Shown: in pieces, positions 2-25,329 of the stretch
How the letters are laid out: every line of letters begins with the position of its first letter
Numbering within the stretch: position 1 is the stretch's first letter
Assembly: GCF_000017305.1 (NCBI RefSeq)
Contig: NC_009664.2
Location: 2,460,001 to 2,492,000, forward strand
Direction: 5' to 3'
DNA: 32,000 nt
Source: Kineococcus radiotolerans SRS30216 = ATCC BAA-149
GTDB lineage: Bacteria; Actinomycetota; Actinomycetes; Actinomycetales; Kineococcaceae
Position numbers and translations under genes: made by a program
Notes under the pieces: generated by a model
What the model was told of the DNA's origin: nothing
What the model saw: only the letters and a program-made list of their open reading frames with translations
Database searches by the model: none

Positions 2-2059
2 GATTTCATCGACAATATCGGCCGGTTGCGCCGCTACGTTAACGAGACGTACCGACTGAACCGTCGAGTGGTGAGGCATCGCCGTGAGCGCGTTCTGACG
101 GGAGTGCCGTGCGGACCCAACAGTCCTGAGTTCGAGGTCACCGGGCGCAGCGAACCGCAACTGCTTGTCCCCAACGATCCGGTAGGGGACCAAGCAGAAC
201 TGTTCTTGGAAGAGTGGCGTCAGGACGTTGTCGATCACCTCAATGTCAGTGGCGCGCAGTTCACCGATGACTACGAAAACCTGTACGGGCTCTTCCTGGC
301 GTCAGCGCGCAGTCCACAACACCTGAGTCAACTCATGCACGTGCGCCTATCCGCCATCGATCGCGAGGCTATGGTCTCGCAACTTAGTGACGCGGAGTGG
401 GCAATGCTTACAGAGGCGCCCCCACTCCCCGCAGACCAACGGCTCCTCACGCAGTTGGCCTCACTCTCGCACGGGGATCACATCAGTGCTTTGATCCACG
501 CCGTTCGTCCCGCATGCAAAAAGCATCAACAGATCGTCATGTTCGTGGACTCGACGCTTGTTGGACACCAGTTGGCTGCCGCGCTGCGCGCAAAGTTCCG
601 CGGCCTCCAGGTGGCTGAGCACTTCACCGATCAGTCGCCTACGGAGCGCGAGGAGTCCGTGGCGCAGTGGAGACGTGGCAGTAGCCGCGTACTCATCTGT
701 GATAGCAGCGCTGAGGAGGGCAGGAACTTCCAAGACGCGGACGCCATGGTGCACGTGAACCTCCCCTCCTCGGTCAACCGTCTCGAACAACGCATTGGAC
801 GTGTGGACCGGCACGGCAGCGAAGGGGCAGCAGAGCAGTACGTGGTCGCCCCGGACTCCATTGAGTCTCTCACCGGAGCTTGGTTAGAACTGCTCCGTGA
901 CGGCTTCGGCGTGTGGCGGACATCCCTAGCGAGCCTGCAGTACACCATCGAGGCTTTGCACCCGCAAATTCGCCATTCCGTCTTCACTCGCGGCGGGGAA
1001 GGCCTCGTGGACCTGGTGGAAGTCGTATGTGCGGAACTGACACGCAGTGCAACGGACATCACCGCAGAGGACCAGCTTGAGGCATCATTCCTTAGTGGCG
1101 GCGGCATCCATTCTCTCGTTGCCTTGGATCAAATCGAGACCGACTGGCCGCAGTTCGACGCAGCACTGAACGACTTGGCCTATAAAGCGGATGGAAGCCT
1201 TCAACTCCATCCACTGCCCGGCGGTGACCGCTTCACCCGCCGTTTCGAGCCAGGGGAGCGGCCCTTGCTTACCAGCCACCAGGTGCAAACAGCCCTTCCA
1301 GGGACCTGGGACACGCCGGGCAGTTGCAATCGCACCGCAGCGCTACGGCGGCCCGGACACCGAGTGCTTCGGTATGGATCGCCCCTGATCGACAGCCTCG
1401 CCACGTGGGTCGAACAAGACGACCGAGGACAAGCCAGCGCTCTGTGGCGACTGGCGCCCGGCCTGCCAGACGAGCAGGTCTACCTGGCCTTCGACTACCT
1501 CGTCGAAGGCGACGTCGGCGGCATTGCCCCGAACCTGGACCCCGACGAGAGCAGAGCACTGCGTCGCCGCCTCGACGGCTGGCTGGCGCCTTTCATGCAC
1601 CGGGTATGGCTGGATGCATGGAAGCAGGAGCCACCACTTCCGGGTCTCCTGCCCCTGCTCGAGCGCCGCTATGACCCACGCCCCCACATCGGCGACGTCA
1701 ACCTGAACCCCGACCGCATCGCGGCACTTCACCACCTGTTCGGCGGCGAGCGAGCATTTGGCCAGGCAGTGCGGCTTACCCACGCCGCCGCTCCGGGCAA
1801 CCTTCGCAGCCAACGCCGCGTCGATGCCCTCATCGAAGATGCCTGCGCCCGAGCACGCATAGACCTCCATGATGAGCTCGCCGTGCTCACTGCCCGAGAG
1901 GTAGCCGGTCTTGCTGACTCAACCGCCGGTCTCACCGAGGAACGCGTCGAGGCTCTCCTCAACGCGTGCCGGAATCCGCGTATCCGACTCCGCTCCGTGA
2001 CCTGCATGGTCATTAGCGGTCAACGGTTCAACGACGCATCGGGGGCAATGCGTGCATAA
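2..2059 (+). CDS. dpdE: SNF2/RapA-type helicase, C-terminal ~685 aa only (gene begins upstream of the window); DpdE-like restriction component
   Basis: The frame is open from nt 2 (DFIDNIGRLRRYVNE...), so the TTG at 26 in the ORF track is not the true start. Helicase C-terminal lobe: QIVMFVDS...RVLICDSSAEEGRNFQ...LEQRIGRVDRHG (motif VI, nt 788-817), close to the RapA/SNF2 pattern EQRIGRLDRIGQ. About 400 aa follow with no motif I recognise. The stop overlaps the next start by 8 nt. The letter E is assigned from position and domain order only. Confidence 0.75.
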   Translation, partial: DFIDNIGRLRRYVNETYRLNRRVVRHRRERVLTGVPCGPNSPEFEVTGRSEPQLLVPNDPVGDQAELFLEEWRQDVVDHLNVSGAQFTDDYENLYGLFLASARSPQHLSQLMHVRLSAIDREAMVSQLSDAEWAMLTEAPPLPADQRLLTQLASLSHGDHISALIHAVRPACKKHQQIVMFVDSTLVGHQLAAALRAKFRGLQVAEHFTDQSPTEREESVAQWRRGSSRVLICDSSAEEGRNFQDADAMVHVNLPSSVNRLEQRIGRVDRHGSEGAAEQYVVAPDSIESLTGAWLELLRDGFGVWRTSLASLQYTIEALHPQIRHSVFTRGGEGLVDLVEVVCAELTRSATDITAEDQLEASFLSGGGIHSLVALDQIETDWPQFDAALNDLAYKADGSLQLHPLPGGDRFTRRFEPGERPLLTSHQVQTALPGTWDTPGSCNRTAALRRPGHRVLRYGSPLIDSLATWVEQDDRGQASALWRLAPGLPDEQVYLAFDYLVEGDVGGIAPNLDPDESRALRRRLDGWLAPFMHRVWLDAWKQEPPLPGLLPLLERRYDPRPHIGDVNLNPDRIAALHHLFGGERAFGQAVRLTHAAAPGNLRSQRRVDALIEDACARARIDLHDELAVLTAREVAGLADSTAGLTEERVEALLNACRNPRIRLRSVTCMVISGQRFNDASGAMRA

Positions 2060-4580
2060 TCATCATGACGGAGCCTGGGCGTGCACCGAAGCGGCTTTGG
2101 CCGGTAACGGCCTGGCCGACTGCCGCCCCACGTTGCCCCGCCCCCATCGCCGCCTCCACGACGCGCTGGAAGCAGCCAACGCCTCACCGGCAGACCTCGC
2201 CGTCCTCCTGCGTCACGTTTTGGGGTGGGAGGACAGTCGAGGCGGCTCGGGCTTCGGTTTGCGGCTCACCCCCCGCGATGCCCTGCCCGACCAAGACACC
2301 CTCAGCAACGCAGGCATCGACGTCACGCCCTTGACCGAGGGGCGGTGGCTGCTGCAGCGCCGCGCGTGGAGTGTGCCCGGTGACCCGACCTCCACACTGC
2401 GGGGAGACCCCCTCCGTGAGGTTTACCTGGAGCATGACTCCAGCCAGCGTCGGACCGACTCCGATGTGCCAGCGGATACCTTCTGGGTTCAGACGGTCGG
2501 CCATTCGACATACCGCACGTCCGGTCAAGGGCAGGCAGCTAGGTCCGTGGTGACCGCGCCGCCGGGCAGCACTGTGCTGCTCAACCTTCCCACCGGAACG
2601 GGTAAGACTTCCCTGGCGCTGGCCCCCGCCCTGCTGAGGTCTTGGCATGTCGGGGTCTCCATCGTCATCGTGCCCACTGTCGTCCTAGCTCTCGACCAAG
2701 AACGTCGCGTTCAGGACACGATCGCCGAGCTTAGCCACCGCCCCTCCCCATCGGGACGCTATGCCTACCTCGGAGAGATGACAGACAGCGATAAGCAGGC
2801 GATCCGAGAAGCCATTCGGACAGGCGAGCAGCGCATCCTTTATACCTCCCCCGAAGCCTTCTCAGCCGGCCTTGCGCCGGCACTGTTCGACGCCGCAGAG
2901 TCTGGGCACCTGCGTTACCTGGTCATCGACGAAGCACACATGGTGCACCAGTGGGGGGCGGACTTCCGCCCCGACTTCCAGGCACTCGTCGGCATGCAAC
3001 GCGCACTCGTTGCCCGGTCTCAACCCGATGTGCGTCCTGTCACCGTTCTGATGACCGGGACCCTGTCATCAGCCGCCGCTCAGACGCTGCAACAACTTTT
3101 CGGCGACGCGCAGCCCGTCCAGTTGCTCAGCAGCGCCAATCTGCGCGGAGAACCGGAGTACTTCCTCACCCGGTGGAACGATCCTGAGTCACGACTGGCA
3201 GCCCTCCGAGAAGTCCTATGGCACACGCCCCGCCCTGCCGTGGTGTACGTGTCGACCCCGGAGCAGGTGGATGAGGTCCGCAAGGCGCTGAGAACGTGGG
3301 GGTTAACGCGCCACGCTGGAGTCAGTGGACGCAGCAGTGCCATCGAACGCCAGGAGGTCGTGCGTGACTGGCGAGGCGAGAACAGTCCCGCGACCATCGA
3401 CGTGGTGGTGGCCACATCAGCCTTTGGCCTTGGCGTCGACATGCCTGACGTGCGCACGGTCATTCACGCCTGCGAGCCGGAGTCACTAGATCGCTTCTAT
3501 CAAGAGGTCGGGCGTGGTGGGCGTGACGGCGCCCCCTCAATGAGCATCTACCTTCCCGCTGCGCAAGATGCATTTCTCGCGGAGTCACTGTCGGATCCCA
3601 CCATCCTCTTGGCGACGACCGCGCAGGGCCGCTGGGAGGCCCTCCTGGCGGCCTCCACAACTGCCGAAGAGGGCCGCCTGCGGCTCGACCTTGACGCGAG
3701 GCCGGTCAACGTTGTCGAGTCGGGCCCGAAGAACCGCGCGTGGAACCTTCGTCTACTGACCCTGCTAGTGCGGACAGGTGCACTGAGCCTCCTTGCTGAG
3801 GAGACGTACACTGAACGACAAGAAGGCAACACCGAGGTCGTTCCTCACCGATACCTGCGCGTCAACTTCCACCGGGAGTTGGACTGGACGGCGTTCGAAG
3901 CCGAACGTACGCGCACATTGGCAGCCAGCAGACACGGCCTGCGGCATCTGCGAAGGCTCGCGTCTGGTGATCGGTGTAGCGGCGAGGAGCTGCACGAGTA
4001 CTACACCTTCGAGGAAGCGTGGGGGTACTCCCACGTACCCACCGCGTGCCGTGGGTGCCCCACGTGCCGCCGAGAACGACGGGCAGTTCCCAGCGCCGCG
4101 GCACCGACCCCTCCTGTCATCGCGTGGCAGAATCAGTCAGGCCCGTCACCGCAGGTTCGACTGCTCATGCCCACGGGGCGACTCGCGGTCGTTGTGGATA
4201 CGCAGCGTGGTGCTGACTATCGACGTCGCGCCGTGCAAATCGTAGAGCGTCTCATCGAACTAGGGTTCATCCACATCATCGACTTGGGCGATGTTGGATC
4301 TGTTTCGACGTGGCAGCGTTTGCAACGCCACGCAAATCCCGCCCCAGTCATGCAGTCATACGATGAACCCAACCCTTGGCACCCCTTTGTCCCCACCGTC
4401 ATCCTTCTCGGTTTCACCCACCAGGAAGGGCCCGATTTCGACACGTGGGCAGCACACTTTCCCTACACCGTGATCATCACGCCGTCGCACAACACGGCGC
4501 CGGGGCGCCCGGGAACACCATGGCAGGATTTGAACGGACCGTGTATCAGCGAAATGCGTCTCACTAAGGACATGACATGA
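2052..4580 (+). CDS. dpdF: RecQ-like DEAH helicase; DpdF-like
   Basis: Walker A LPTGTGKTS. RecQ signature VIDEAHMVHQWGADFRPDF (nt 2928-2978; compare E. coli RecQ DEAHCISQWGHDFRP). Motif VI-like YQEVGRGGRDG. RecQ-style zinc motif C-x23-C-x2-C-x2-C (nt 3975-4067). The GTG start overlaps the upstream stop, and there is an ATGA overlap with the next gene. Confidence 0.8.
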   Translation: MHNHHDGAWACTEAALAGNGLADCRPTLPRPHRRLHDALEAANASPADLAVLLRHVLGWEDSRGGSGFGLRLTPRDALPDQDTLSNAGIDVTPLTEGRWLLQRRAWSVPGDPTSTLRGDPLREVYLEHDSSQRRTDSDVPADTFWVQTVGHSTYRTSGQGQAARSVVTAPPGSTVLLNLPTGTGKTSLALAPALLRSWHVGVSIVIVPTVVLALDQERRVQDTIAELSHRPSPSGRYAYLGEMTDSDKQAIREAIRTGEQRILYTSPEAFSAGLAPALFDAAESGHLRYLVIDEAHMVHQWGADFRPDFQALVGMQRALVARSQPDVRPVTVLMTGTLSSAAAQTLQQLFGDAQPVQLLSSANLRGEPEYFLTRWNDPESRLAALREVLWHTPRPAVVYVSTPEQVDEVRKALRTWGLTRHAGVSGRSSAIERQEVVRDWRGENSPATIDVVVATSAFGLGVDMPDVRTVIHACEPESLDRFYQEVGRGGRDGAPSMSIYLPAAQDAFLAESLSDPTILLATTAQGRWEALLAASTTAEEGRLRLDLDARPVNVVESGPKNRAWNLRLLTLLVRTGALSLLAEETYTERQEGNTEVVPHRYLRVNFHRELDWTAFEAERTRTLAASRHGLRHLRRLASGDRCSGEELHEYYTFEEAWGYSHVPTACRGCPTCRRERRAVPSAAAPTPPVIAWQNQSGPSPQVRLLMPTGRLAVVVDTQRGADYRRRAVQIVERLIELGFIHIIDLGDVGSVSTWQRLQRHANPAPVMQSYDEPNPWHPFVPTVILLGFTHQEGPDFDTWAAHFPYTVIITPSHNTAPGRPGTPWQDLNGPCISEMRLTKDMT

Positions 4581-5461
4581 CGCTTCTTCAACCGCCCAAC
4601 ATCCTTCCCAAGGGCATGTTCGTCATTTCTCGGACGCTGCGCGAACACGGAAAACCTTATGACCGGAGCAGGCTGAAGGGGTTGCTTCAACCGTCAACGC
4701 TCGTGCTGCGCAGGACGGGCGCCAACACCTTCGACGCTTCCTTCAAAGCGTTGCGCGATCTGGGCATCGCGCGACTGGAGGGCGACGAGGTCACACTCGC
4801 CGCCGACGCGCCGGACGTCGGAGATATGTCCACGTTCTACCGGGATCTCGTCAAGCGCGTGTTCGCTGGCGTCGACGAATCAAATGCCGCATCTACGCCT
4901 CAGTCTGACTTGCTCATCTCGCTCGCTTGGTGGTGCGCTCAAGATCCTCACGGAGAGCCACTAGGCTGGGAGAACGTCCAGCCACTGCTGTTTCACGACA
5001 TGGGTGAGGCATATCAAAGCTTCCCCATCGGCAACTCCAACCCTTGGGCCTCGTTCACTCGGTGGGCTCTCGCGCTAGGCTTCGCAGAGACGCAGTCCAT
5101 CGGCGACGGAACGTCAGGACGTGTCGTTCCCGATGCGACTCGGGCAGTCAAGAGTGCCATCCAGGCCGCAACATTCTTAGAGGTACGTGCAGATCAACTG
5201 CTCACCTACCTTCAGGAGCAACTGCCGGTCTTAGATGGTGGCCGCCTCGCGCAGTACTGGCGTCCTGAGTGGAACTTGCCGCCTGGGCGCCGGGCGGTTG
5301 TCGGGGCAGTCGACCGTGTCTTCAGCCACGCCCTCCTCCGCGCCGAGGAGGACGGTGTCCTCGCGCTCCAGACCTTGTCCGACGCCGGAAAGATCACGCT
5401 CTCGGATGGCGAGCGAGACCGACCGGTCAGCCACGTCCGAGTCCTCCAGGAGGTAATGTGA
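4577..5461 (+). CDS. dpdG: Protein of unknown function, DpdG-like by position
   Basis: 294-aa ORF with high third-position GC. ATGA overlap upstream and GTGA overlap downstream. The N-terminal segment (...FKALRDLGIARLEGDEVTL) looks winged-helix-like. No catalytic motif recognised. Confidence 0.55.
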   Translation: MTLLQPPNILPKGMFVISRTLREHGKPYDRSRLKGLLQPSTLVLRRTGANTFDASFKALRDLGIARLEGDEVTLAADAPDVGDMSTFYRDLVKRVFAGVDESNAASTPQSDLLISLAWWCAQDPHGEPLGWENVQPLLFHDMGEAYQSFPIGNSNPWASFTRWALALGFAETQSIGDGTSGRVVPDATRAVKSAIQAATFLEVRADQLLTYLQEQLPVLDGGRLAQYWRPEWNLPPGRRAVVGAVDRVFSHALLRAEEDGVLALQTLSDAGKITLSDGERDRPVSHVRVLQEVM

Positions 5462-8400
5462 CCGCCACCGACTTCCCCGGCTTCGTCTGCTGGAAGCGCC
5501 CCTTCGTCGCAGAGACCGTGGCGACCGAAGCCGTCCATGCCGACCCTGCGGTGTTCCTGGCGACTCATCGCCCGTTGCGTGTGGTCCGCACTGCCTGGGA
5601 GCGCGAGGCCAGTGGCGACATCGTTGACGAGCAAGACGTCCTCAACGACTTCGCCAGTCGAGAGCCTGTAGGCGGTGTCGTGCTCATGCCCATCCTCGGT
5701 GAGTCCGGGACCGGCAAGTCTCACCTGGTGCGCTGGGTCCGTGAGCACCTCTCGGAGACACCGCAACGGCGGGTGGTCTACCTGCCGAAGACGGGCACGA
5801 ACCTCGTCGGACTGGTACGTGCTCTGCTGCTGGACTTAGAAGGCGATCCCTTCGACGACATCCGCAACCGCGTCGCCAAGAGCGCTGGCCAGTTCGACCA
5901 ACAACGCCTTCCCCATGACTTGCTCGCTCGCTTGGCCGTGGCGGTGCGGTTCCACACACCCCAAGTGGCAGAGACGGCAAAAGTTCCCCTAGCGAAGCTT
6001 TTGGTGAGCGAGCGTGGCCTGCCGGCACTGCTCAACGACTTCGAGTACCAGCGCCACCTGTTGGTTGAGGGTGGCATTTTGGATCGGGTGGCAGCCGAAC
6101 TACAGCGAGGTCGCGGGGAAGGGGAGTCTGAACGACCCGCCGGCTTCGTCGCAACCGATCTACGCCCGACCGGCGTCAACGTGAAGGACATGGGTGCGGC
6201 CGCACAACGCATTTACGAGCAACTCCTGGGACACCCCTTGCTGCCGCAACTTGCGGCTGACATCCTGAATGCGAACCTCGAAAACGCTGTCCAGGCACTC
6301 GCGGATCTCGGCGCTGGTCAACTGCAAAGCGCGATGGTCGACGTGCGCCGCGAACTTCACCGTCGGGGTCAGGAAATTCTGCTCCTGATTGAAGACTTCG
6401 CCGTTATTCAAGGCGTGCAAGGGGATCTTCTCGACGCCATCAGCGAGACCGGCGTGCGAGAAGGCCAGCAGGAGTTGGCCACCGTGCGAACACTGCTCGC
6501 CGTAACTCCCGGCTACTACAAAGACAATGTCCCTGAAACGTTCAAGACTCGCGCGACGGCAAGCGTCCCGCATTCCTACACCCTCGATGTCAGCGTGGGC
6601 CGGGGTCACAGTGTCGATCACCAGCATGTTATCGACTTCGTAGGTCGTTACCTCAACGCGGCGCGGCTTGGCGCGCAAGCATTGCGCACTGCTCGCGACA
6701 ACAACGGCACACTACCCAACGCCTGCACTTCCTGCAAATTCAAGGCGCCCTGCCATGACGCATTCGGCACCTCCAACGACGACTTCGGACTGTACCCATA
6801 CAACGCCGCGGCACTGACCCGAGCGGTGCACCTGTCCATGCCGCGCGAAAGTGCACGGTTTAATCCCCGCCGCATCCTGTCACGAGTCGTGCGACACGTC
6901 CTCGACAACTATGACCAAGATGTTGCAAACGGCGCATTTCCGTCGATGACGTTCCGCAGCGATTTCCCTACCGATCGGCAAGGAAGCCTCACTGCCGAAC
7001 AGGCGGACTACCTGACGCGTCACGATGCGCTCCATGAGCGCCGGATCCCCCTTCTGGAGTTCTGGGGAGGTGGCGACGCGGCCAACCTCAATGACGGAAT
7101 TCATCACGCCTTTCGCCTCGCGCCCCTTAGCGCCGAGGCTCTTGAGGCGCTTCGTGGCCGCACTCCAGACCCCGACCCAGACCCCGACGACCCCGACCCC
7201 ATTCGGGATCCTGCAGCGAGCAAGGCGCGCGTCGTTGACGCCTGGCATCGCGGCGAACTGCTGCACCAATCGGTAGCGAACGAGTTGCGGCAGACAATCC
7301 GCGAAGCGATCGTTGCGCACGTCAACTGGGGTGACCTCGGATTGGCGACGCCGACCATGCCGGTGCGACGCGCAGTGCTCAAGCACCCATTTGGTCTCGG
7401 CGTGATCATCGAAGGAGCCTTCGGAGACCGCACCTTGGACCCCCCGACGACTGCGACGGTGGTGCTTCTGAGGGGACCCGCCAATGCCACCTTGTTTAAG
7501 GCGCTTCTTGATCGAAAGAGGCTCGGCACGTGGAACTTTTCAGGTGGAGCAGAGCAGCAACGCCGCTTCACGCGCCTCCTGGAGACCTGGGGCGCTCAGA
7601 TGGTGAATGCGATCCGTGCCCATCTGGGACTCCACCAGCCTGACACCCTGCAGGCAGCGGTGGACATTTCCCTCATCGGCGCGCGACTGTTGAATCTGGA
7701 AGGCAACCGAAGCGCCAACGCCGAAGCACTGGTGACGTGCCTCTTCGATGCCGCCAACGTCAAGGCGAGACCGGACGCGCGTCTGCACGACGACGAACTA
7801 CTTCGCGCGCCGTCTTATACAACCCTCGCACGCCAGCACGCCGCGACGCGAGGGGACGTTATTGCGCAGTTGCGCGAAATCGTGGGGGTGGCCCAGGGGG
7901 CTGGAGAGGAGCAATTGATCGATGCCCTCCAGTTGCTGCCGCTTATCGACAAGGCTCGCAAGGCACTGCGACCAACACCGCACGCCGACGCGCCTGAGTG
8001 GCTGGGTAAGGCCCACAAAGTTCTCACCAAGGGACTGGATCGTGCAATCCAGGATCAGTGGGGGCTGGCGTGGGAGGTGGCCAATGAGGTCGAGGGACAC
8101 CTCGGTGACGCCGACCCCAACGCTGTGCTCGCAGCTGTAGCCGAGGCGTTCGAGACGGCCCAGCAGGCGATCCCCGGGGTACTCTCGGTTGATTCTGAGC
8201 AACTCCGCCAGGAGTTGTTAAGGGCTCGCAACTTCCCGTGGTCGGCTTCGCGTGATCACGCGAGAACGATGCTGGCCGCAGGCGCCGACCCTGCCAACGC
8301 CGCGGACCCGCTGCGCATGTTCCTCGCGGTCAGTGCTGATCGAGGCCCCAACGCCGCTGTCATGATGGAGTTCCTGAGAGACACCGACAAGCGCTTGGAC

Positions 8401-8523
8401 ACCCTCGCCAAACGAGCGCAGCGTGACTTGAGCACCGTGCCGGAAAGTCCTATCGATCGGCTACAACAAGTCCTGATCCAGGCTCAAAGTGCGGTGCAGG
8501 AATGGGGAGTGACCGATGCCTGA
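5458..8523 (+). CDS. dpdH: Large P-loop NTPase, DpdH-like by position
   Basis: I place the start at GTG 5458, preceded by GGAGG (5449-5453) and overlapping the dpdG stop as GTGA. The ORF-track start at 5269 would lie inside dpdG. Walker A GESGTGKSHL (nt 5698-5727). Candidate Walker B ILLLIEDFA. Cys/His cluster CTSCKFKAPCH. PD-rich linker TPDPDPDPDDPDP. Confidence 0.65.
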   Translation: MTATDFPGFVCWKRPFVAETVATEAVHADPAVFLATHRPLRVVRTAWEREASGDIVDEQDVLNDFASREPVGGVVLMPILGESGTGKSHLVRWVREHLSETPQRRVVYLPKTGTNLVGLVRALLLDLEGDPFDDIRNRVAKSAGQFDQQRLPHDLLARLAVAVRFHTPQVAETAKVPLAKLLVSERGLPALLNDFEYQRHLLVEGGILDRVAAELQRGRGEGESERPAGFVATDLRPTGVNVKDMGAAAQRIYEQLLGHPLLPQLAADILNANLENAVQALADLGAGQLQSAMVDVRRELHRRGQEILLLIEDFAVIQGVQGDLLDAISETGVREGQQELATVRTLLAVTPGYYKDNVPETFKTRATASVPHSYTLDVSVGRGHSVDHQHVIDFVGRYLNAARLGAQALRTARDNNGTLPNACTSCKFKAPCHDAFGTSNDDFGLYPYNAAALTRAVHLSMPRESARFNPRRILSRVVRHVLDNYDQDVANGAFPSMTFRSDFPTDRQGSLTAEQADYLTRHDALHERRIPLLEFWGGGDAANLNDGIHHAFRLAPLSAEALEALRGRTPDPDPDPDDPDPIRDPAASKARVVDAWHRGELLHQSVANELRQTIREAIVAHVNWGDLGLATPTMPVRRAVLKHPFGLGVIIEGAFGDRTLDPPTTATVVLLRGPANATLFKALLDRKRLGTWNFSGGAEQQRRFTRLLETWGAQMVNAIRAHLGLHQPDTLQAAVDISLIGARLLNLEGNRSANAEALVTCLFDAANVKARPDARLHDDELLRAPSYTTLARQHAATRGDVIAQLREIVGVAQGAGEEQLIDALQLLPLIDKARKALRPTPHADAPEWLGKAHKVLTKGLDRAIQDQWGLAWEVANEVEGHLGDADPNAVLAAVAEAFETAQQAIPGVLSVDSEQLRQELLRARNFPWSASRDHARTMLAAGADPANAADPLRMFLAVSADRGPNAAVMMEFLRDTDKRLDTLAKRAQRDLSTVPESPIDRLQQVLIQAQSAVQEWGVTDA

Positions 8524-9211
8524 GACGTTGCTGCAGCGCGCATCTGACGTGGCGGATGCTTGCCGAGCGGTGCGGGCGCACCGGTTGGCGATGCAGGACG
8601 CTGAGCGACTGCGGCGCCGGACTCAAGAATTGTCGGACGCGCTCACTCGGGCGAGCGACGTCGTCCAGAGATGGCGGGTCTACCGCGACGGCAACGTCTC
8701 AGTGACTCCGCTTCCCCCCTGTGACGTCCTGCAGACTGCTTTCACAGCGCTGAGTGAGACGGTTACAGTCGGCGGCGAGACACCCGACGACCTCTTCATC
8801 GCTGTCCGCAACGCCCTGAGCAGTTTCACGACACGGCTCAGCGTCTCCCTTGACGAAGCCTGGCAGGTGCATGCACAGTCTCAAATTGATCGGGCCGGAA
8901 TAACGTCGGCAGGCTTGCTGCCGCTAGGGGAGCGCCGGGCGCTGGGACCAGCGCTACGGGACATCAGCGCCGCCGCCGCCACCGCGCCTTCCAGTGCTGT
9001 AGCTGTTCGCTGGTTCAACGAACTCATCGACGACGTCACACAGCGCCTGACAGCGGCGCGTGTGAGCGAACTGCCCGCCGGTCTACGGCAGGTCGTGCGC
9101 AGCATTGACAGTGGCGGGCTATCACTGAACGAACTGAGTGAGCAGGATCTGCGTGACTTGAAGGAGCGTGGCTATGCAGCGCACCTCCAGGTCCGGTGGA
9201 GCGCCTCGTGA
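8516..9211 (+). CDS. dpdI: Protein of unknown function, DpdI-like by position
   Basis: 231-aa Ala/Arg/Leu-rich ORF with high GC3. The ATG overlaps the upstream stop by 8 nt, and its own stop overlaps the dpdJ start. No motif recognised. Confidence 0.5.
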   Translation: MPETLLQRASDVADACRAVRAHRLAMQDAERLRRRTQELSDALTRASDVVQRWRVYRDGNVSVTPLPPCDVLQTAFTALSETVTVGGETPDDLFIAVRNALSSFTTRLSVSLDEAWQVHAQSQIDRAGITSAGLLPLGERRALGPALRDISAAAATAPSSAVAVRWFNELIDDVTQRLTAARVSELPAGLRQVVRSIDSGGLSLNELSEQDLRDLKERGYAAHLQVRWSAS

Positions 9212-16561: not shown

Positions 16562-16586
16562 GGGTCTGCTGCACTGATCGGTGACA
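16562..16586 (+). repeat. IS left terminal inverted repeat
   Basis: Exact reverse complement of 17852-17876. Confidence 0.9.
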
Positions 16587-16657
16587 ACCTGACGTGCCCC
16601 ACCCTCTGATTACCTCACCTCCTGTGAAGATCGAGCTTTTCCTGAGAGGCTCTGATC

Positions 16658-16953
16658 ATGCCCAGACCGTTCCCACCGAGTTCCGAGCCAGGGCTGTGGC
16701 CCTCGTCCGGGCGGGCAAACCCGTCACGACTGCGGCCATCGAGCTCGTCATCAGCGCGGGCGCGCTGCACAAGTAGGTTCGTCAAGACCAGATCGACCGC
16801 GGTGAACGCAACGGGTTGAAGAGCCCCGAAAGCGCGGAGCTGACCCAAGCCAAGAAGCGCATCCATCAACTCGAAGTCGAAGTGGAGATTCTACGACAGG
16901 CCGCTCACCTGCTCGGGGAGGATCGACCCCACCCAAAAGGATTCACCCGGTGA
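16658..16953 (+). pseudogene. IS3 orfA (HTH plus leucine zipper), disrupted
   Basis: GAGAGG RBS followed by ATG 16658 gives MPRPFPP. A 1-nt shift near 16675-16678 is then needed to read EFRARAVALVRAGKPVTTAAIELVISAGALHK. In-frame TAG at 16774-16776 falls where family members have Trp (..HKWVRQ), consistent with TGG->TAG. The frame then continues VRQDQIDRGE...KKRIHQLEVEVEILRQAAHLL. Confidence 0.75.
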
Positions 16954-17806
16954 TCGACGTCCTCGTCGACGCTGGGCACCCGGTCAAGCTCTCCTGCCGC
17001 CTGCTGGGCGTCAGTAGCCCTGGCTACTACCGCTACAAGCACCGTCCCATCGCGCCGCGGACGATCCGCCGGGAATGGCTCACCGGGCTGATCCGAGAGG
17101 TTTACACCGCCTCCCGCCAGACCTACGGTTCCCGTCGCGTCCACGCTGTGCTCACCCAGGCGATGGGCGTGCAAGTCAGTGAGCGTCTCGTCGCGGTGCT
17201 GATGAGTCTGGCTGGGATCGCTGGACTTCCCGGGCCGGCGAAGGTCAAACGCCTCAGCGGCATTGCCATCGCGGACGACTGGTGTACCGCAAGTTTCATC
17301 GGCTGTCACCCAACGAGTTGTGGGTCACCGACATCACCGAGCATCCCACCCGGGAGGGCAAGGTGTACTGCTGCGCGGTGATGGACACGTTCTCGCGCCG
17401 GATCGTGGGCTGGGCCATCGACACCGCCCAAGTCTCCAACCTCGTCGTCAACGCCCTCGACATGGCCATCAAGAACCGCAACCCACCGGCCGGCGGTATT
17501 GTGCATGCGGATCACGGAGTTCAATTCACGTCGTGGGCCTTCACCAACAAGATCCGGGCTGCGAGGTTGATGCCGTCGTTCGGAACCATCGGCGACGGTT
17601 GTGACAACGCGATGATGGGATCGTTCTGGTCCAGCATGCAGATCGAGCTGCTGAACCGGAAGAAGTGGCGAACCCGCATCGAGTTGGCGAACGCGATCTT
17701 CGACTACATCGAGATCTTCTACAACCGCCAGCGTCGCCACTCCCGGCTCGACTACGTCAGCCCGGTTGAGCATGAACTACGCTACAAGGCGGCCGCCCCC
17801 ACTTGA
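16950..17806 (+). pseudogene. IS3 orfB (DDE transposase/integrase core), frameshifted
   Basis: Frame 3 reads IDVLVDAGHPVKLSCRLLGVSSPGYYRY...SGIAIADD. The homologous reading then continues in frame 2 from ~17282 (VYRKFHRLSPNELWVTDITEH...). Restoring one nt (gac gac Ctg gtg tac) would rejoin the two parts. Confidence 0.8.
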
Positions 17807-17851
17807 TCTTCACACCGCAGTGGGTAACCAAGGGGTGGGGCGGGTCATAGC

Positions 17852-17876
17852 TGTCACCGATCAGTGCAGCAGACCC
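17852..17876 (-). repeat. IS right terminal inverted repeat
   Basis: Exact reverse complement of 16562-16586. Confidence 0.9.
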
Positions 17877-17958: not shown

Positions 17959-18543
17959 CTACCCCTGTCGCCCGACGGCGCTGGGCTCACCGCCAGACGA
18001 GACGGTCGGTCCGACATGGCCGCGACGTCGTCGCAGCAAGGCCAGCACGAGTACGGCCGCCGCGGTCATCCACGCCTTGCCCACAAGTTGGCCAGGCAGG
18101 AACGCCAGAGAGTTGAAAGCGAGCCAGAGGAAGATCAGAGAGTCCACTATAAAGCCAGCGATGTTGCTGAGGACGACTGCGGTCAGCCAGCGCCGCTTGC
18201 GCAGTGGGGTGTAGACGGCGAAGTCAGCTAGTTCGCTGAGGAGGAAGGCGGCGGCGCTGGCTAGGGCGAACTGCGGGGAGATCAGCGCTGAGAGCAGGGT
18301 GCCGATGACGATGGCGGCTAGCACCGCGCGCTTGCCGAGGTGGTCCTGGGTCAGGTCGCGCAGCGTGAAGGCCAGGCCGGCGAAGTACACCCCTGCTGGT
18401 GCGACCAGGCCGAAGCCGACGGGCACGGCGCCGAAGGTGGTGATGGCGTAGTTGGCGAGCAGCACGGTCGCCACGTAGCACGCCGCCAGCACCAGGCCCA
18501 CCCGCCGACTCGTGCGCGGCGCGGCCAGATCAGAGGTGCTCAT
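17959..18543 (-). CDS. VUT-family (YhhQ/DUF165-like) queuosine-precursor transporter
   Basis: Polytopic membrane protein with the family pattern [11 protein letters not shown]...[36 protein letters not shown] 18543 is preferred because GAGGAG lies 6-11 nt upstream on the minus strand. It overlaps the queD 3' end by 14 nt. Confidence 0.75.
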
Positions 18544-18901
18544 CGGTTTCTCCTCGGTAGGTGGCACCAGAGGTGCAGGTCTCGCGGACGGTCACGGCAC
18601 TGAGCAGGGCCAAGGTGGGGGAGAGTTGCTGCCACATCCAGCGCGCGAGGACTTCGCTGGTGGGGTTGTCCAGCCCTTCGACCTCGTTGAGGTAGTAGTG
18701 GTCCAGACGCTCGATGACCGGGGCGACGAGCTTCTTCAGGTCGCCAAAGTCCATCACCCAGCCCAGGAGTGGGTCGGGTAGGCCGTTCACGTGCACGCTG
18801 ACTCGGTAGGAGTGCCCGTGCAGGCGCGCGCACTTGTGCCCTGCGGGAACGTGCGGCAGGCGGTGCGCGGCTTCGAAGGTGAATTCGCGGAAGATCTCCA
18901 T
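18530..18901 (-). CDS. queD: 6-carboxy-5,6,7,8-tetrahydropterin synthase
   Basis: [34 protein letters not shown]... carries the QueD/PTPS His/Cys motif set. ATG at 18901 overlaps the queE stop (TGATG). The ORF-track start at 18946 would lie inside queE. Confidence 0.9.
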
Positions 18902-19620
18902 CAGGCGATCCCGAGGTACTTGTGGGTCTGCATCGATAGGCTCCACTGCGGATGGGTCAGGCAGTAGTCGATCGCGGCGCGGGTGTGGGCTTGCACGTCG
19001 GGTCCATCCATCGGCTGCAGGCGGAAGGAGGTGAAGTCCAGTTCGGCGAACTGCGCTGGATCTCCGCCGGCTTGCGGGTAGACGAGCTTCAGTTCGTCTC
19101 CCCTGCTCACCACCAGGTCTGCACCAATCTTGGGGCTAACGCAGAGCCAGTCGATGCCTGGTGGGGGAGTGCGGGTGCCGTTGGTCTCCACCGCCACCTC
19201 GAAGCCGCGCTGGTGCAGTGCCTGCACCGCCGCGTCGTCGAGTTGCAGCAACGGCTCCCCGCCGGTGCATACCACGAACTTGCGCTGGGCGCCGTGAGGG
19301 GCGTGGGAGTGTGCGCTGGAGTCGGACTCTGCAGTGATGGCGGAGCCATCGGTGAAGTCATCGGTGAGGCCAGCTGCTGGCCAACTCGCGTCCACGGCGG
19401 CGGCGAGGTCGTCGGCGGTAGCGAAGCGTCCTCCACCGACGCCGTCGGTACCGACGAAGTCGGTGTCGCAGAAGGTGCAGATCGCGCGGGCGCGATCTTT
19501 CTCTCGACCGGTCCACAGGTTGCAGCGCGAGAAGCGGCAGAAGACGGCGGGGCGGCCGGCGTGGGTGCCTTCACCTTGCAGCGTGTAGAAAATCTCCTTG
19601 AGCAGGTAGGTCACCGTCAC
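18901..19620 (-). CDS. queE: 7-carboxy-7-deazaguanine synthase (radical SAM)
   Basis: [49 protein letters not shown]. The cluster motif is C-x14-C-x2-C (nt 19468-19524), the variant known from Burkholderia QueE. GTG 19620 overlaps the queC stop as GTGA. The upstream extension to 19704 lies inside queC. Confidence 0.9.
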
Positions 19621-20306
19621 GCTCCGCGGTAGGGCAGGGGGTCGGTGCTGCCTGCCTCGGCGAAGCCGTTCAAGCGCAGGAGGCAGGAGTCGCAGTGCCC
19701 GCACGGGTGTCCGGCCGCGTCCGGGTCGTAGCAGGAGGAGGTCATGCCGTAGTCCACGCCCAGGGCCAAGCCCGCTCGCACGATGTCGGCCTTGGTCATC
19801 TGCATCAGGGGGGCGTGGATGGTCAGTTCGGTGCCCTGCACGCCAGCGCGGGTGGCCAGGCGTCCCATGGCTTGGAAGGCGTCGACGTACTCGGGGCGGC
19901 AGTCCGGGTAGCCGCTGTAGTCCAGGGCGTTGACGCCGATGAAGATGTCGCCGGCGCCGACGACCTCGGCGTAGGCCAAGGCGTAGGACAAGAAGATCGT
20001 GTTGCGGGCCGGCACGTAGGTGATCGGGATGTCGGCCTGCAGGTCCTCGACCGTGTCGTGCTTGGGCACCGCGATGTCCGCGGTGAGGGCTGAGCCGCCG
20101 AAGACGGTGAGGTCGATGGTGGCGATGACGTGCCCGGCCGCGCCCAGGGCCGTGGCGACGCGGCGGGCAGCGTCCAACTCCACGGCGTGGCGCTGGCCAT
20201 AGGCGAAGCTCAGGGCGTAGGGGGTGAAGCCTTGGGACTTAGCGATGGCGAGGACGGTGGTGGAGTCCAGGCCTCCGCTGAGCAAGACGACGGCGGGTCG
20301 GTCCAT
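19617..20306 (-). CDS. queC: 7-cyano-7-deazaguanine (preQ0) synthase
   Basis: PP-loop [23 protein letters not shown], and the C-terminal zinc motif CYDP...[19 protein letters not shown] lies upstream of the ATG. Confidence 0.95.
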
Positions 20307-20464
20307 GGGGCATCCCTCAAGTGATCGTTAACTGCGCTGGCGGCATGTCGGTGTGACTTGCCGGTGTGATGTGCAGGTGCGCGAGCACCACCGTAGACCA
20401 GTAACTGCAGATCCAGCCAGCGACACGTAGCCTGTAGTATCGAAGTGCTCAAAGGAGGCGCAGC
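20307..20464. promoter_or_regulatory. Divergent promoter/control region between queC (-) and the modification operon (+)
   Basis: 158-bp gap. Candidate actinobacterial -10 TAGTAT (20435-20440) and RBS AAGGAGG (20452-20458) for the + operon. Direct repeat TG(T/C)CGGTGTGA at 20346-20356 and 20359-20369, 13 bp apart. No transcription start can be proven from sequence. Confidence 0.35.
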
Positions 20465-21583
20465 GTGCGTAAACTGACCGTGGTGGTGACCTGCAGCGAC
20501 CGCAAGTCGCAACCGGTCGCTCCTGACCTCCGCCTGCGCGACGTCCCCGAGGAGCACCCCGAGTCCCGTGCCCACGCCTGGGACGGGCGACTGCGCCGGG
20601 CCGCGCAGCACCACCCGGGCTCGCAGCGACCCCTGGCCACGCTCTACCAAGGTGATCACTGGGCGCAGGCGCAAACCCTGCCCGCTGCCGCCGCCCGCGT
20701 CGGCTTCCACGCCGACCTCTGGGTCGCCTCCGCCGGGCTGGGACTGCAGCCCATCACCGCACAGGCACCCGCCTACGCGGCCACCTTCGCCGCTCGCCAC
20801 CTCGACCGCGTCGCCGCCGACGCGTGCGGGCGGCAGCAGTGGTGGGCGGCTCTGCAAGCCCGCCGTGGCGCCAGCACCCTGGCCGACTTGGCCCGCGCCG
20901 GCTCACTGCTGATGATCTTCTCCGAGGACTACGGCCACGCCGTGCAGGAAGAACTGCACGCAGTCGCCCACGTCGGCGCTGACGCCCTGCTCATCGGCGG
21001 CGCCAGCGACATCGACGGTCTGCCACGCCTGGCCGCCGATCGACGCCTGCGGTCCCACCTGGGGGGCACCTTAACCAGCCTGAACGTGCGCACGGCGCTG
21101 GCGTGGCTGCAGCGACTGAGCCCCAGCACCACCACCAGCTCTGGCTCCGCCTTGGCCACCACGGCCGGACCCCTCGTTGGTGGGCCCACGTTGACCTCGA
21201 CCGCTGCCTGGCGGCGTTGGCGGCGCTGGAGCACCGCGCACGCGCACGAAGAGGTCTACGACCGACGTCCCTTGAGCGACGAGCAGGTACGCGCCTACAT
21301 CGGCACCCGGCACGCGCTCATGGCCCGCCCCAGCCGCACCACACTGCTACGAGCCCTCCGTGAGGACGGCTACGCCTGCGAGCAGTCCCGCTTCGGCCAC
21401 CTCTACACCCAGGTCCTGCAGCACCTGGCTGAGCAAGACGCTCACCACGACGCTGAGCAGGACGTCGGCTTGGACATCGCCGAGGCCAGTGGACACAGCA
21501 AGCGAGGCATCGTGCAGAGCACGCAGCGAGCACGGCACGGCCCCAGTCCAGGGCGCGATCAGGTAGCAGGGGGAGCAGCATGA
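20465..21583 (+). CDS. 372-aa protein of unknown function, first gene of the modification operon
   Basis: GTG lies 6 nt after AAGGAGG. ATGA overlap with the next gene. The N-terminal pattern VVVTCSDRKS...LYQGDHW...LWVASAGLGL...PAYAATF recalls the DUF6884-type pattern (CSxxK...LYxG...SAxxGL...Y), a weak recollection. Ser/Thr/Ala linker, then a C-terminal HTH-like segment (RPSRTTLLRALREDGYA). Confidence 0.6.
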   Translation: MRKLTVVVTCSDRKSQPVAPDLRLRDVPEEHPESRAHAWDGRLRRAAQHHPGSQRPLATLYQGDHWAQAQTLPAAAARVGFHADLWVASAGLGLQPITAQAPAYAATFAARHLDRVAADACGRQQWWAALQARRGASTLADLARAGSLLMIFSEDYGHAVQEELHAVAHVGADALLIGGASDIDGLPRLAADRRLRSHLGGTLTSLNVRTALAWLQRLSPSTTTSSGSALATTAGPLVGGPTLTSTAAWRRWRRWSTAHAHEEVYDRRPLSDEQVRAYIGTRHALMARPSRTTLLRALREDGYACEQSRFGHLYTQVLQHLAEQDAHHDAEQDVGLDIAEASGHSKRGIVQSTQRARHGPSPGRDQVAGGAA

Positions 21584-22713
21584 GCGAAGGCATCATCCGA
21601 CGACGGGCACTGCGCATCCTGCAACGCGAGGACGTGCCGCTGTACCTGTTCGCGCTCGCCGCCTCCGACGTCGCCCGCATCGCCGACGTCGCGCGCATCT
21701 CGCGCGACGACTTCGGCAAGCTCATCGGCTACCAGCGCCCGGAGAAGAAGCAGCACGTCAACCAGATCGTCGACTACCTCGACACCGACGGCGCGCTCTT
21801 CCCCAACGGCCTGATCCTGGCTCTGCCCACCAGCGTGCATTTCCGCTCCAGCCGCGGCCCCGGCGCCAGCGACGGCCTCGCCACCGCCGGGGAGTTGGAG
21901 ATCCCCTGCCCTGAAGAAGACGGCGCACCACGCCCGGCGTGGATCGTCGATGGCCAACAGCGCAGCCTGGCGCTCGCCCGCACCCGCAACACCTCCTTCC
22001 CCGTACCGGTCGCCGGCTTCGTCACCGAGAACCTCGACATGCAGCGTGAGCAGTTCCTGCGGGTGAATACCGTGCAGCCCCTGCCGACCAACCTAGTCAC
22101 CGAACTGCTGCCGGAGGTTCCGACCACCATCTCCCCGCGCATGTCCGCGCGCCGGCTGCCCTCGGCCTTGGTGGACATGCTCAACCAAGACCCCGAGTCT
22201 CCCTTCCGCGGCTTGATCCGCCGCGCCTCCACCGACGTGGACAAGAAGTCCGGCGCGGTCATCACCGACAACAGCCTGGTGCTTGCCATCGGTGAGTCCC
22301 TCAACTCCCCCCTCGGGGTGCTCTTCCCCTACCGCAACCTCGCCGACGGCACCACCGACACCGCAGGCATCCGCCAGTTGCTCATCACCTACTGGACCGC
22401 GGTACGCCGCCTCTTCCCCGATGCATGGGGCAAGCCACCCACGGAAAGTCGACTTATGCATGGCCTCGGCATCCGCGCCATGGGCCGACTGATGGACCGC
22501 ATCATGGTCAGCATCGACGCTGCTGCCCCCAGCGCAATTGACGACGTCATGACGGAGTTGTGGCGGGTGGCTCCGGTGTGTCGGTGGACGCACGGCACGT
22601 GGGAGGGACTGCGAGTGGACTGGAACGGACTGCAGAACAACCCTAAGGACATCAGCACCCTGTCCAACTACCTCGTGCGCGCGTATCTGCAGGCAAGGAC
22701 GAGCACCTCATGA
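21580..22713 (+). CDS. dpdB: DGQHR-domain (DndB/DpdB-like) protein, paralogue 1
   Basis: WIVDGQQRSLAL (DGQQRS at nt 21949-21966), GYQRPE, QFLRVNTVQPLPTNLVTELLP, C-terminal LQNNPKD..LSNYL. ATGA overlaps on both sides. Confidence 0.75.
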   Translation: MSEGIIRRRALRILQREDVPLYLFALAASDVARIADVARISRDDFGKLIGYQRPEKKQHVNQIVDYLDTDGALFPNGLILALPTSVHFRSSRGPGASDGLATAGELEIPCPEEDGAPRPAWIVDGQQRSLALARTRNTSFPVPVAGFVTENLDMQREQFLRVNTVQPLPTNLVTELLPEVPTTISPRMSARRLPSALVDMLNQDPESPFRGLIRRASTDVDKKSGAVITDNSLVLAIGESLNSPLGVLFPYRNLADGTTDTAGIRQLLITYWTAVRRLFPDAWGKPPTESRLMHGLGIRAMGRLMDRIMVSIDAAAPSAIDDVMTELWRVAPVCRWTHGTWEGLRVDWNGLQNNPKDISTLSNYLVRAYLQARTSTS

Positions 22714-24218
22714 AGTTCTACTTCCCCGACAGTCAAGACCTGATCAGCCCCACCTACGACTTTGACCGGGATGAGTACCACCCGTTGCGAGTGCGTCAGC
22801 GCGACGATCGCTACGCACACGAAGCACTTACCGCCCGCCCTTACGACGGCATCCTCGTCAGCAAGGGCATCGTCGACGGTTCCATCAGCGGAACCGGCAA
22901 GTACACCACCTCTCAACGCGCACGCCTGTACCGCCTGGGCGTGCGCGACTTCTTCCGACTCCCTGACGGGATCGAGACTCTTGGTGACAACGGCGCCTTC
23001 GCCTACGCCACCGAGGAAATCCCGCCCGTCACCGTGGAGCAGGTCCTCGACTTCTACGACGGCTGCGGCTTCGACGCCGGCGTCAGCCTGGACCACATCG
23101 TCTTCGGATACCAACCCGACGAAGTCGTGCAGGCGGCCGGCGGCATCTTAAACGACGAGCAGAACGCTTGGGAAACCAGACGCGAGCTCACCCTGAAATA
23201 CGCAGCGGAGTTCCTAGAAGCAATCCACGAACGCGGATCCACCCTGGTACCCGTCGGGGCAGCACAAGGGTGGAGTCCAAGCACCTACGCCAACAGCGTG
23301 CAACGTCTCCAAGATTTGGGCTACCAGCGCATCGCCCTCGGCGGCATGGTCCCGTTGAGAACGCCCGCTATCCTCGCGTGCCTCAACGCCATCGACGCCG
23401 TCCGCAAACCCGACACCCAACTGCATCTGCTGGGCATCACCCGTCTCGACGCCATGGAAGAGTTCGCCCGACTAGGCGTGTCTAGCCTGGACAGCACTTC
23501 CGGCTTCCGGCAGGCGTTCATGGACGAAAAAAATAACTACCACACCGCCAACGGCAATTACGCCGCTATCCGCGTGCCCCAGGTCGATGGAAACCTCAAA
23601 CTCAAGAAGGCCATCGTGGCTGGTCAGGTCTCCCAAGCCAGTGCCGTTCGTTTGGAACGCGAATGCTTGAGTGCCCTGCGTGCCTACGACGAGGGCGCCG
23701 CCAGTCTCGAAGAGGCTTTGGAGACCGTCTTGGCCTACGACGCGTTAGTGCGTCCGCCGGCCGACCGCGCGAAACAATCGTATGAGGAGATGTACCGCAC
23801 CACCCTCCAGGACCGCCCCTGGACGACGTGCTCATGCGGATTGTGCGAGCGACACGGCATTCAGTTGGTCATCTTTCGAGGCACCGAACGCAACAAGCGG
23901 CGCGGTTTTCACAACCTCGCTGTCCTGGCCGCCAAGATGCACACCCTGCGCCCCGCCAGAGTCAAGCCGACTGCGTCGCGGACCAGGGCAAAGGCGCAGA
24001 CAACATCAGGCGCGCCGATGCGCACGACGCAGGGGCGGACCACTGCGGCCACGGGGGGATTGGCGGCGGCCGACTCGACCGTAACGAAGGCCACGGCGAG
24101 GACCGCGAAGGTCACCGCGAAGAAGTCCACCGCAGTGGAAGTTCCTGCAAGGAAGACTGTCACCAAGAAGACGGCGGCGAAGACAACGACGAAGCGCACA
24201 AGGGGAACTGATGGCTGA
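22710..24218 (+). CDS. dpdA: DNA-guanine transglycosylase DpdA (TGT superfamily) with a ~90-aa basic C-terminal tail
   Basis: The N-terminus MKFYFPDSQDLISPTYDF is characteristic of DpdA. TIM-barrel core GDNGAFAY...ALGGMVPL...LHLLGI. Zinc motif CSCGLCERH (C-x-C-x2-C). Tail aa ~414-502 is rich in K/R/T/A (..AKVTAKKSTAVEVPARKTVTKKTAAKTTTKRTRG). Confidence 0.9.
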   Translation: MKFYFPDSQDLISPTYDFDRDEYHPLRVRQRDDRYAHEALTARPYDGILVSKGIVDGSISGTGKYTTSQRARLYRLGVRDFFRLPDGIETLGDNGAFAYATEEIPPVTVEQVLDFYDGCGFDAGVSLDHIVFGYQPDEVVQAAGGILNDEQNAWETRRELTLKYAAEFLEAIHERGSTLVPVGAAQGWSPSTYANSVQRLQDLGYQRIALGGMVPLRTPAILACLNAIDAVRKPDTQLHLLGITRLDAMEEFARLGVSSLDSTSGFRQAFMDEKNNYHTANGNYAAIRVPQVDGNLKLKKAIVAGQVSQASAVRLERECLSALRAYDEGAASLEEALETVLAYDALVRPPADRAKQSYEEMYRTTLQDRPWTTCSCGLCERHGIQLVIFRGTERNKRRGFHNLAVLAAKMHTLRPARVKPTASRTRAKAQTTSGAPMRTTQGRTTAATGGLAAADSTVTKATARTAKVTAKKSTAVEVPARKTVTKKTAAKTTTKRTRGTDG

Positions 24219-25329
24219 CCGGTACGAACTGCGACTGCCCGCCCTGCAGATCCGCCAGGGCGAGCGCTTCATCTACTGCTTTGCCGTCGACGGCAAAGTG
24301 CTGCCGTCGTTCACCGCCGTCTCGCGCGTGCACCGTAGCAACGCCGCACTGCACGGCTATCAACGCCCAGAAGTGCTTAGTCACATCAAGGCCATTCGTC
24401 GCTACCTCGAGTCCTCAGACGCGATGCTGCCCAACGCCATCGTCTTGGCCTTCAACGAGAGCGTGCGCTTCCAGCCGAGCAGGCGCAAAAACATTGTGGA
24501 CTACTCCACCATGGGCGAGTTGATCATCCCCATCGACGAAACGATCGATGAGGCGGACAAGGCCGCGTGGCTCGTTGACGGGCAACAGCGTAGTGCAGCA
24601 ATCCGCGACGCCAACGTCGATGAGTTCCCCGTCGCTGCAGTCGGCTTCATTACTCACGGTGAGGAGGAGCAGCGTTCACAGTTTATACTCGTCAACAACG
24701 CCAAGCCCCTACCCAAGGGACTGATCCACGAATTGCTGCCCGACACCGTTGGGCACCTGCCAGCGAAATACGCCAAACGTCAACTTCCGGCGTTGCTGAT
24801 GTCGCGCCTGAACAACGAAGACTTGTTCAGCTACAACGACGACGACAGTCCTTTTCAGGGTCGCATCGCCACCCCCACCGCCCCAGACGGCTACATCAAA
24901 GACAACAGCGTCTTGAAGATGATCGAAAGCAGCCTCAACGAGGGGGCCCTCTACCAGTACCGCAACCCCAGCGACCACTCCGGCGACGCCGACGCCATGC
25001 TGCTTCACCTGAAAATCTTCTGGAGCCTGGTCCGCGCGACCTTCCCCGAGGCCTGGAGCATGCCGCCGCGCAAGTCGCGCCTTACCCACGGCGTCGGCAT
25101 CCAAGCCATGGGCTTCGTCATGGACGCCCTGACCGAGAACACCCCCGCCGCCAAACTTCCTGACCTAGATCTGCACGAGCCGTTGCAGCGACTACGCGAG
25201 GCGTGCGCTTGGACCTCGGGCACATGGCAGTTCGGCAAGAGTGATCAGCGACACTGGAACAGCCTCCAAAATACCCCCAATGATGTGCGGTTGTTGACCA
25301 ACTACCTCCTGCGCGTCATCCGATCTTGA
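24211..25329 (+). CDS. dpdB: DGQHR-domain (DndB/DpdB-like) protein, paralogue 2
   Basis: WLVDGQQRSAAI (nt 24577-24594), GYQRPE, QFILVNNAKPLPKGLIHELLP, LQNTPNDVRLLTNYL. Collinear with paralogue 1 along its whole length. The start overlaps the dpdA stop by 8 nt. Confidence 0.75.
   Translation: MADRYELRLPALQIRQGERFIYCFAVDGKVLPSFTAVSRVHRSNAALHGYQRPEVLSHIKAIRRYLESSDAMLPNAIVLAFNESVRFQPSRRKNIVDYSTMGELIIPIDETIDEADKAAWLVDGQQRSAAIRDANVDEFPVAAVGFITHGEEEQRSQFILVNNAKPLPKGLIHELLPDTVGHLPAKYAKRQLPALLMSRLNNEDLFSYNDDDSPFQGRIATPTAPDGYIKDNSVLKMIESSLNEGALYQYRNPSDHSGDADAMLLHLKIFWSLVRATFPEAWSMPPRKSRLTHGVGIQAMGFVMDALTENTPAAKLPDLDLHEPLQRLREACAWTSGTWQFGKSDQRHWNSLQNTPNDVRLLTNYLLRVIRS

Follow-up and report, generated by a model that had tools for sequence, protein, structure and literature searches.

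We analysed a stretch of 32,000 nt (in the following called the window) from the actinomycete Kineococcus radiotolerans SRS30216 (contig NC_009664.2, positions 2,460,001 to 2,492,000). A model working from the letters of this DNA had placed in it a Dpd-type island for the modification of DNA with 7-deazaguanine bases and the restriction of unmodified DNA (in the following called the original prediction). Genes were assigned from a six-frame listing of open reading frames (ORFs) using the NCBIfam equivalog models with their cut-offs, Pfam and the PADLOC profiles, and motifs were checked directly. The listing revealed two long gene runs on the plus strand with a minus-strand block between them (Table 1). 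The first run consists of dpdE, F, G, H, (I), J, K and D, the minus-strand block of queC-queE-queD and a yhhQ-like gene, and the second run of dpdC-dpdB-dpdA-dpdB. All eleven dpd functions, A to K, and the genes for preQ0 synthesis could be assigned by curated models, DpdI tentatively by its position and an iterated profile. With E-values from 1e-31 to 0, the gene assignments are beyond chance, and these genes very probably represent the complete Dpd restriction-modification island of this strain.

Table 1 Genes of the Dpd island and the insertion sequence within it. Scores in bits are followed by the cut-off of the respective model.
Feature	Positions	Strand	Evidence
dpdE, SNF2/BrxHII-like helicase, 5′ end outside the window	2–2059	+	NCBIfam DpdE 4.2e-137, 458.7 bits (cut-off 500); Pfam Helicase_C
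dpdF, RecQ-like DEAH helicase	2052–4580	+	NCBIfam DpdF 717 bits (550); DEAH at residue 293; Pfam DEAD and Helicase_C
dpdG	4577–5461	+	NCBIfam DpdG 109.5 bits (80), full length
dpdH, P-loop ATPase, BrxC-like N-terminal part	5458–8523	+	NCBIfam DpdH 921 bits (450); Walker A GESGTGKS
Putative dpdI, divergent, 231 aa, all-helical	8516–9211	+	Position and iterated profile
dpdJ, YprA-like DExH helicase, 1493 aa	9196–13677	+	NCBIfam DpdJ 1654 bits (800), full length; DEVH at residue 388
dpdK, single-HKD phospholipase-D-family nuclease	13674–14192	+	NCBIfam DpdK 200 bits (100); HEKGLLAD at residue 120
dpdD	14192–16363	+	NCBIfam DpdD 553 bits (300); PADLOC DpdD 3e-235
IS3-family insertion sequence, decayed, not part of the system	16562–17876		Terminal inverted repeats, GAG duplication, HTH_21 and rve
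yhhQ-like queuosine-precursor transporter	17959–18567	-	Pfam Vut_1 40.9 bits (gathering score 27.2)
queD	18530–18946	-	TIGR03367 QueD 108.6 bits (89); Pfam PTPS
queE	18901–19704	-	TIGR04508 queE_Cx14CxxC 336 bits (240), match from residue 33
queC	19617–20306	-	TIGR00364 206.6 bits (150); Pfam QueC 1.2e-73
dpdC (preQ0-DNA to ADG-DNA)	20465–21583	+	PADLOC DpdC PDLC02817 3.4e-127
dpdB1, extra DpdB paralogue, 5′ of dpdA	21580–22713	+	NCBIfam DpdB 408 bits (300); GYQR and DGQQR
dpdA, DNA-guanine transglycosylase	22710–24218	+	NCBIfam DpdA NF041059 588 bits (200); PDB 7UI4, E-value 2.8e-120
dpdB2, orthologue of the canonical DpdB ATPase	24211–25329	+	NCBIfam DpdB 520 bits (300); DGQQR

The profile models for the dpdA to dpdK and preQ0 genes confirm the original prediction in its central statement. 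DpdA, B, D, F, G, H, J and K all scored above the cut-offs of their models. DpdE stayed below its cut-off because it is truncated by the start of the window: only profile positions 397–1048 of 1048, or 62% of the protein, lie inside, approximately 396 aa are missing, and the reading frame is open from base 2. The three superfamily 2 helicases, the P-loop ATPase and the single-HKD phospholipase D (PLD) nuclease that had been proposed upstream correspond to DpdE, DpdF and DpdJ, to DpdH and to DpdK, and NCBIfam names these genes in the order helicase-helicase-x-x-x-helicase-PLD that had been matched to dpdE–K. All elements described were found where they had been placed, while dpdC, dpdD and the insertion sequence had not been listed. 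Likewise, the predicted queC-queE-queD-transporter operon is present (17959–20306, minus strand), but its divergent neighbor is dpdC and not dpdA.

At those junctions that were checked in the two dpd operons, the stop codon of one gene overlaps with the start codon of the next; the GTG start codon of dpdH, for instance, overlaps the dpdG stop codon as GTGA and is preceded by GGAGG. The real start of queE probably lies about 30 codons inside the annotated ORF. PGAP already provides names for most genes of the island. The dpdC product had no match in NCBIfam or Pfam, and PDB sequence searches returned no match for DpdB2, DpdC or the protein encoded directly upstream of dpdJ, in the position of DpdI (in the following called the slot-I protein).

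The slot-I protein likewise had no match in NCBIfam, Pfam or PADLOC, and a word-indexed homolog search recovered only the protein itself. By a HMMER pass over 1.8 billion representatives we identified six relatives, all between 169 and 234 aa long. Searching the ORFs of all comparison loci, the profile built from these relatives picked the ORF directly 5′ of dpdJ in 15 loci, with E-values from 1e-24 to 1e-5. The second-round profile, in which no enterobacterial sequence was included, found the slot-I ORF of Enterobacter cloacae at an E-value of 4e-6, the database being small (3363 ORFs). The Kineococcus slot-I protein has the position of DpdI and a similar size, but pairwise it shares no similarity with its Enterobacter counterpart, and single-sequence structure prediction by AlphaFold reached a pLDDT (predicted local distance difference test) of 45. 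Even in the canonical Enterobacter cluster, PGAP calls both the slot-I gene and DpdC “hypothetical”; a missing library name for the slot-I protein is therefore uninformative. Based on its position and the small-database iterated profile, we take it as a putative, fast-evolving DpdI. The dpdC product showed 22% identity to the product of the gene located 5′ of dpdA in Enterobacter (E-value of 1e-9). An absence of DpdI and DpdC from the island was also considered and rejected, since PADLOC and the iterated profiles recover both.

We compared the island with the Dpd system of Salmonella enterica sv. Montevideo (dpdA–K), represented by the cluster on the Enterobacter cloacae plasmid pPOL9A. Ten gene families, and tentatively that of DpdI as the eleventh, are held in common. 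The pPOL9A restriction genes are transcribed in the order E-F-G-H-(I)-J-K-D, the same as in K. radiotolerans, which is therefore the standard order; a departure from the model cluster in the location of dpdD after dpdK was considered and rejected on these grounds. The modification genes also match in their order (dpdC-like, dpdA, dpdB), apart from the extra dpdB. Identity to the Enterobacter proteins amounts to 48% for DpdA, 45% for DpdB2 and 37% for DpdK, while DpdC, DpdD (24%) and DpdI are all very diverged. In contrast to the enterobacterial model, K. radiotolerans possesses an additional DpdB paralogue between dpdC and dpdA, built-in queC, queE, queD and yhhQ genes divergent from dpdC, a 90-aa basic tail on DpdA together with a Gln in place of His181 (see below), and a decayed IS3-family element between dpdD and yhhQ. 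Moreover, the modification and restriction operons are co-directional with the que genes between them, whereas the enterobacterial operons are convergent.

Several protein families are shared with DISARM and BREX, namely DpdE with DrmD/BrxHII, DpdJ with the YprA-like DrmA, DpdK with the PLD nuclease DrmC, and DpdH/I with BrxC. The DISARM models, however, scored far below their cut-offs on the island (DrmD 43 bits versus 610, DrmA 21 bits versus 999). There is also no methyltransferase among the island ORFs, and the self mark is here a 7-deazaguanine placed by base exchange. We therefore rejected an assignment as DISARM.

Six proteins of the island are identical in sequence to the K. radiotolerans SRS30216 entries ABS05839–ABS05842, ABS05848 and ABS05850, among them DpdA, which is ABS05840. 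The same accession is listed for DpdA by Hutinet et al. 2016, who show the K. radiotolerans locus in their Fig. 3 (PMC5699537). The remark in the original prediction that actinobacterial examples “such as Kineococcus” carry the modified bases hence referred to the very locus under study. The GATOR-GC paper counts K. radiotolerans among the bacteria with islands that put dPreQ0 and dADG into DNA, and calls the presence of 7-deazapurines there experimentally validated (PMC12235509). Both this and the 2016 paper report the modified bases for the strain with reference to Thiaville 2016 (PMC12235509, PMC5699537). Because the locus appears in that figure and its validation is stated in PMC12235509, the island as such is not a new finding; the locus was published before and helped to define the Dpd system. 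Its value here is that of a positive control, in which a complex defense island was correctly recognized from raw sequence. Some novelty remains and is confined to the architecture with two DpdB proteins, of which K. radiotolerans is an experimentally validated representative, outside the reach of the Salmonella biochemistry.

DpdA shows the hallmarks on which the original prediction was based, the N-terminus MKFYFPDSQD and a zinc-site motif, CSCGLCERH at residue 374 (CxCxxCxxH). Its residues 1–410 align to the crystallized DNA-guanine transglycosylase of S. Montevideo (7UI4), with 48% identity to the enterobacterial and crystallized enzymes. The genes queC, queD and queE and a precursor transporter are common to pathways of tRNA queuosine or archaeosine modification and of 7-deazapurine secondary metabolites, and one may therefore ask if the cluster serves one of these instead of DNA modification. 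Against this, the transglycosylase reached 588 bits with the DpdA equivalog but 16 bits, below the gathering score of 26.3, with the Pfam TGT family (PF01702), and neither the tgt nor the arcTGT models of NCBIfam matched it at an E-value <0.01. Its identity to the crystallized DNA enzyme and its location among DpdB/C and helicase and nuclease genes also oppose such a role, as does the lack of queA, queF, queG or nucleoside-antibiotic tailoring genes among the island ORFs. We consider this alternative extremely improbable. Judged from these comparisons, the TGT-like protein belongs with DpdA rather than with tRNA or archaeosine TGT, as had been predicted.

To inspect the active site, the functional residues named in PMC10164549 were mapped on an alignment of 41 DpdA sequences. 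Residues D93, F97, D128, L241, D261 and F270, corresponding to Asp95, Phe99, Asp130, Leu236, Asp256 and Phe265 of S. Montevideo, were invariant. Of the solved Salmonella enzyme, the catalytic Asp pair (D93 and D261), the zinc site and the Phe that stacks on the base are all kept. In contrast, His181 of S. Montevideo, which contacts the base at its Watson-Crick edge, is replaced by Gln186 in K. radiotolerans. Of the 41 sequences, 37 carry Gln at this position, and His is the rarer state, seen in S. Montevideo, Enterobacter and two loci from metagenome-assembled genomes (L030 and L035). Whether the residue found here goes along with the DpdB copy number was also considered; such a link was rejected, as the correlation was not clean. 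The C-terminal tail of DpdA (residues 413–502, positions 23946–24215) is histone-H1-like, rich in T, A, K and R, with 21 K and R versus 3 D and E. At its length of 90 aa, it is unique to K. radiotolerans among the 41 sequences. In the closest relative, DpdA carries a shorter tail of 24 residues that ends in the same way (...TKRTR.TDG), and two Mycobacterium DpdA proteins have basic tails of 17 residues.

In Salmonella, DpdA together with the ATP-hydrolyzing DpdB replaces guanine in DNA with preQ0 through a double-displacement mechanism (PMC10164549; Gedara et al. 2023). DpdC turns preQ0-DNA into ADG-DNA, the chemistry of DpdA, B and C having been established in vitro, and DpdD–K confer the restriction phenotype (PMC10164549). 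DpdJ has been described as a YprA-family helicase, related to DrmA of DISARM and with a PLD nuclease as its partner, and DpdH/I as corresponding to BrxC (bioRxiv 10.1101/2025.09.15.676423). Transferred to K. radiotolerans, QueD, QueE and QueC would produce preQ0 from the FolE product, or the YhhQ-like permease may bring in preQ0 instead. DpdA, aided by ATP hydrolysis of the ParB-like DpdB, would then replace selected guanines of double-stranded DNA with preQ0, and DpdC would hydrate the nitrile to the amide dADG. DNA without this mark would be acted upon by the products of the translationally coupled dpdE-F-G-H-I-J-K-D operon, in which the effector pair would most likely be DpdJ with DpdK, and DpdE and DpdH/I would act in sensing or loading. 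Established directly for the island are the gene identities, the intact reading frames and the conserved catalytic motifs.

Between dpdD and the convergent yhhQ gene lies the IS3-family element, which has imperfect terminal inverted repeats of ~53 bp, perfect in their outer 25 nt, and is flanked by a GAG target duplication of 3 bp. Frameshifts have broken its ORFs and split the HTH_21 and rve domains over different frames, and the locus of Kineococcus sp. SYSU DK005 is without it. A 16-nt near-copy of the end of the element is located at 16371–16386. Between the two Kineococcus species, the que and modification part (18021–25313) is 80–87% identical at the nucleotide level, versus 66–71% in the restriction part (11222–16330). 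Such a difference suggests faster evolution of the restriction module, or its exchange or replacement.

The same divergence, together with the insertion next to the 3′ end of the restriction operon, could also be read as a sign that the island still modifies DNA while its restriction half has become silent or decayed, leaving an epigenetic or DNA-protective mark only. A protective role is conceivable in a radiation-resistant organism, and restriction has been demonstrated in Salmonella only. However, none of the eight restriction ORFs is shortened (dpdE as far as the window reaches), their Walker A, DExH and HKD motifs have stayed intact and their start and stop codons are coupled; moreover, the insertion is intergenic and has broken no gene. 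We therefore regard a loss of restriction as improbable and favor an island that performs both modification and restriction.

Some observations nevertheless weigh against the interpretation as a complete and working Dpd system. In the literature searched, a restriction phenotype is reported for S. Montevideo but not for K. radiotolerans, and the roles within DpdD–K are drawn by analogy with DISARM and BREX. The evidence for modified bases in K. radiotolerans is second-hand, through papers citing Thiaville et al. 2016 (PNAS). FolE is not encoded within the window, and the yhhQ-like protein, which is 93% identical to its SYSU DK005 counterpart, covers its family profile only partially (TIGR00697 38.5 bits, under the NCBIfam cut-off). 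Finally, the insertion sequence could alter expression from its position between dpdD and yhhQ.

The original prediction had DpdA sandwiched between two DGQHR-family proteins, and indeed both neighbors exceed the DpdB cut-off, though their actual motif is DGQQR. DpdB1 and DpdB2 are 39% identical to each other; the single Enterobacter DpdB shares 45% identity with DpdB2 and 37% with DpdB1. In a neighbor-joining tree of 77 DpdB sequences, the two were placed in separate clades, and the canonical single DpdB joined the downstream copy, DpdB2. These clades span Actinomycetota, Acidobacteriota, Planctomycetota, Verrucomicrobiota and Alphaproteobacteria. DpdB1 is, by this phylogeny, an anciently diverged paralogue. 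Of the 40 comparison loci, 36 have the arrangement C-B1-A-B2, among them those of Tunturiibacter, Planctomycetota, Verrucomicrobia and a Skermanella plasmid; the sample is biased by the retrieval of most loci through similarity to the K. radiotolerans DpdA.

The motifs GYQR, DGQQR and QRxQF are kept in both DpdB clades, and each clade has invariant positions of its own. For these reasons, both clades are under selection and their members probably active nucleoside triphosphatases. The GATOR-GC survey counted 801 extra dpdB copies (PMC12235509), and no functional treatment of such copies was found in the literature searched. The second DpdB may have a special role. One tentative and rather doubtful model is that DpdB1 and DpdB2 might form an obligate ParB-like heterodimeric ATP clamp through which DpdA would acquire a target site that is asymmetric or different, defining a two-DpdB subtype of Dpd systems. 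If true, this subtype would be widespread among the sampled loci and biochemically unlike the Salmonella model, with its single, homodimeric DpdB, that was used for all in vitro work.

Regarding the borders of the island, the nucleotide similarity to the SYSU DK005 locus ends at 25313, which is the end of dpdB2. The right edge of the original prediction, which had given the extent as 2–25329, is therefore correct, whereas position 2 is merely the edge of the window and the left end of the island lies outside of it. The G+C content of the island is 61–68%, climbing to ~70% across queC and dpdC. For the K. radiotolerans genome we assume a G+C content of ~74%, with which a horizontal acquisition of the island would fit. 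Searches of the window with Rfam at the gathering threshold gave no riboswitch, of the preQ1 class or otherwise, no tRNA that might indicate an integration site was detected by ARAGORN, and a scan of the divergent region between queC and dpdC for sigma-70 promoters and terminators found none.

Further to the right, 1.3 kb past the edge of the island, a small serine recombinase with Resolvase and Recombinase domains is encoded (26639–27289). The 346-aa ORF between the island and this recombinase (25411–26451) was not matched by any library, and the related loci lack a counterpart. The right flank has a G+C content of ~69% and also contains genes for an EcsC-family protein (29032–30090, minus strand) and a small winged-helix protein with weak similarity to MarR (31266–31640, plus strand), both apparently unrelated to the island.

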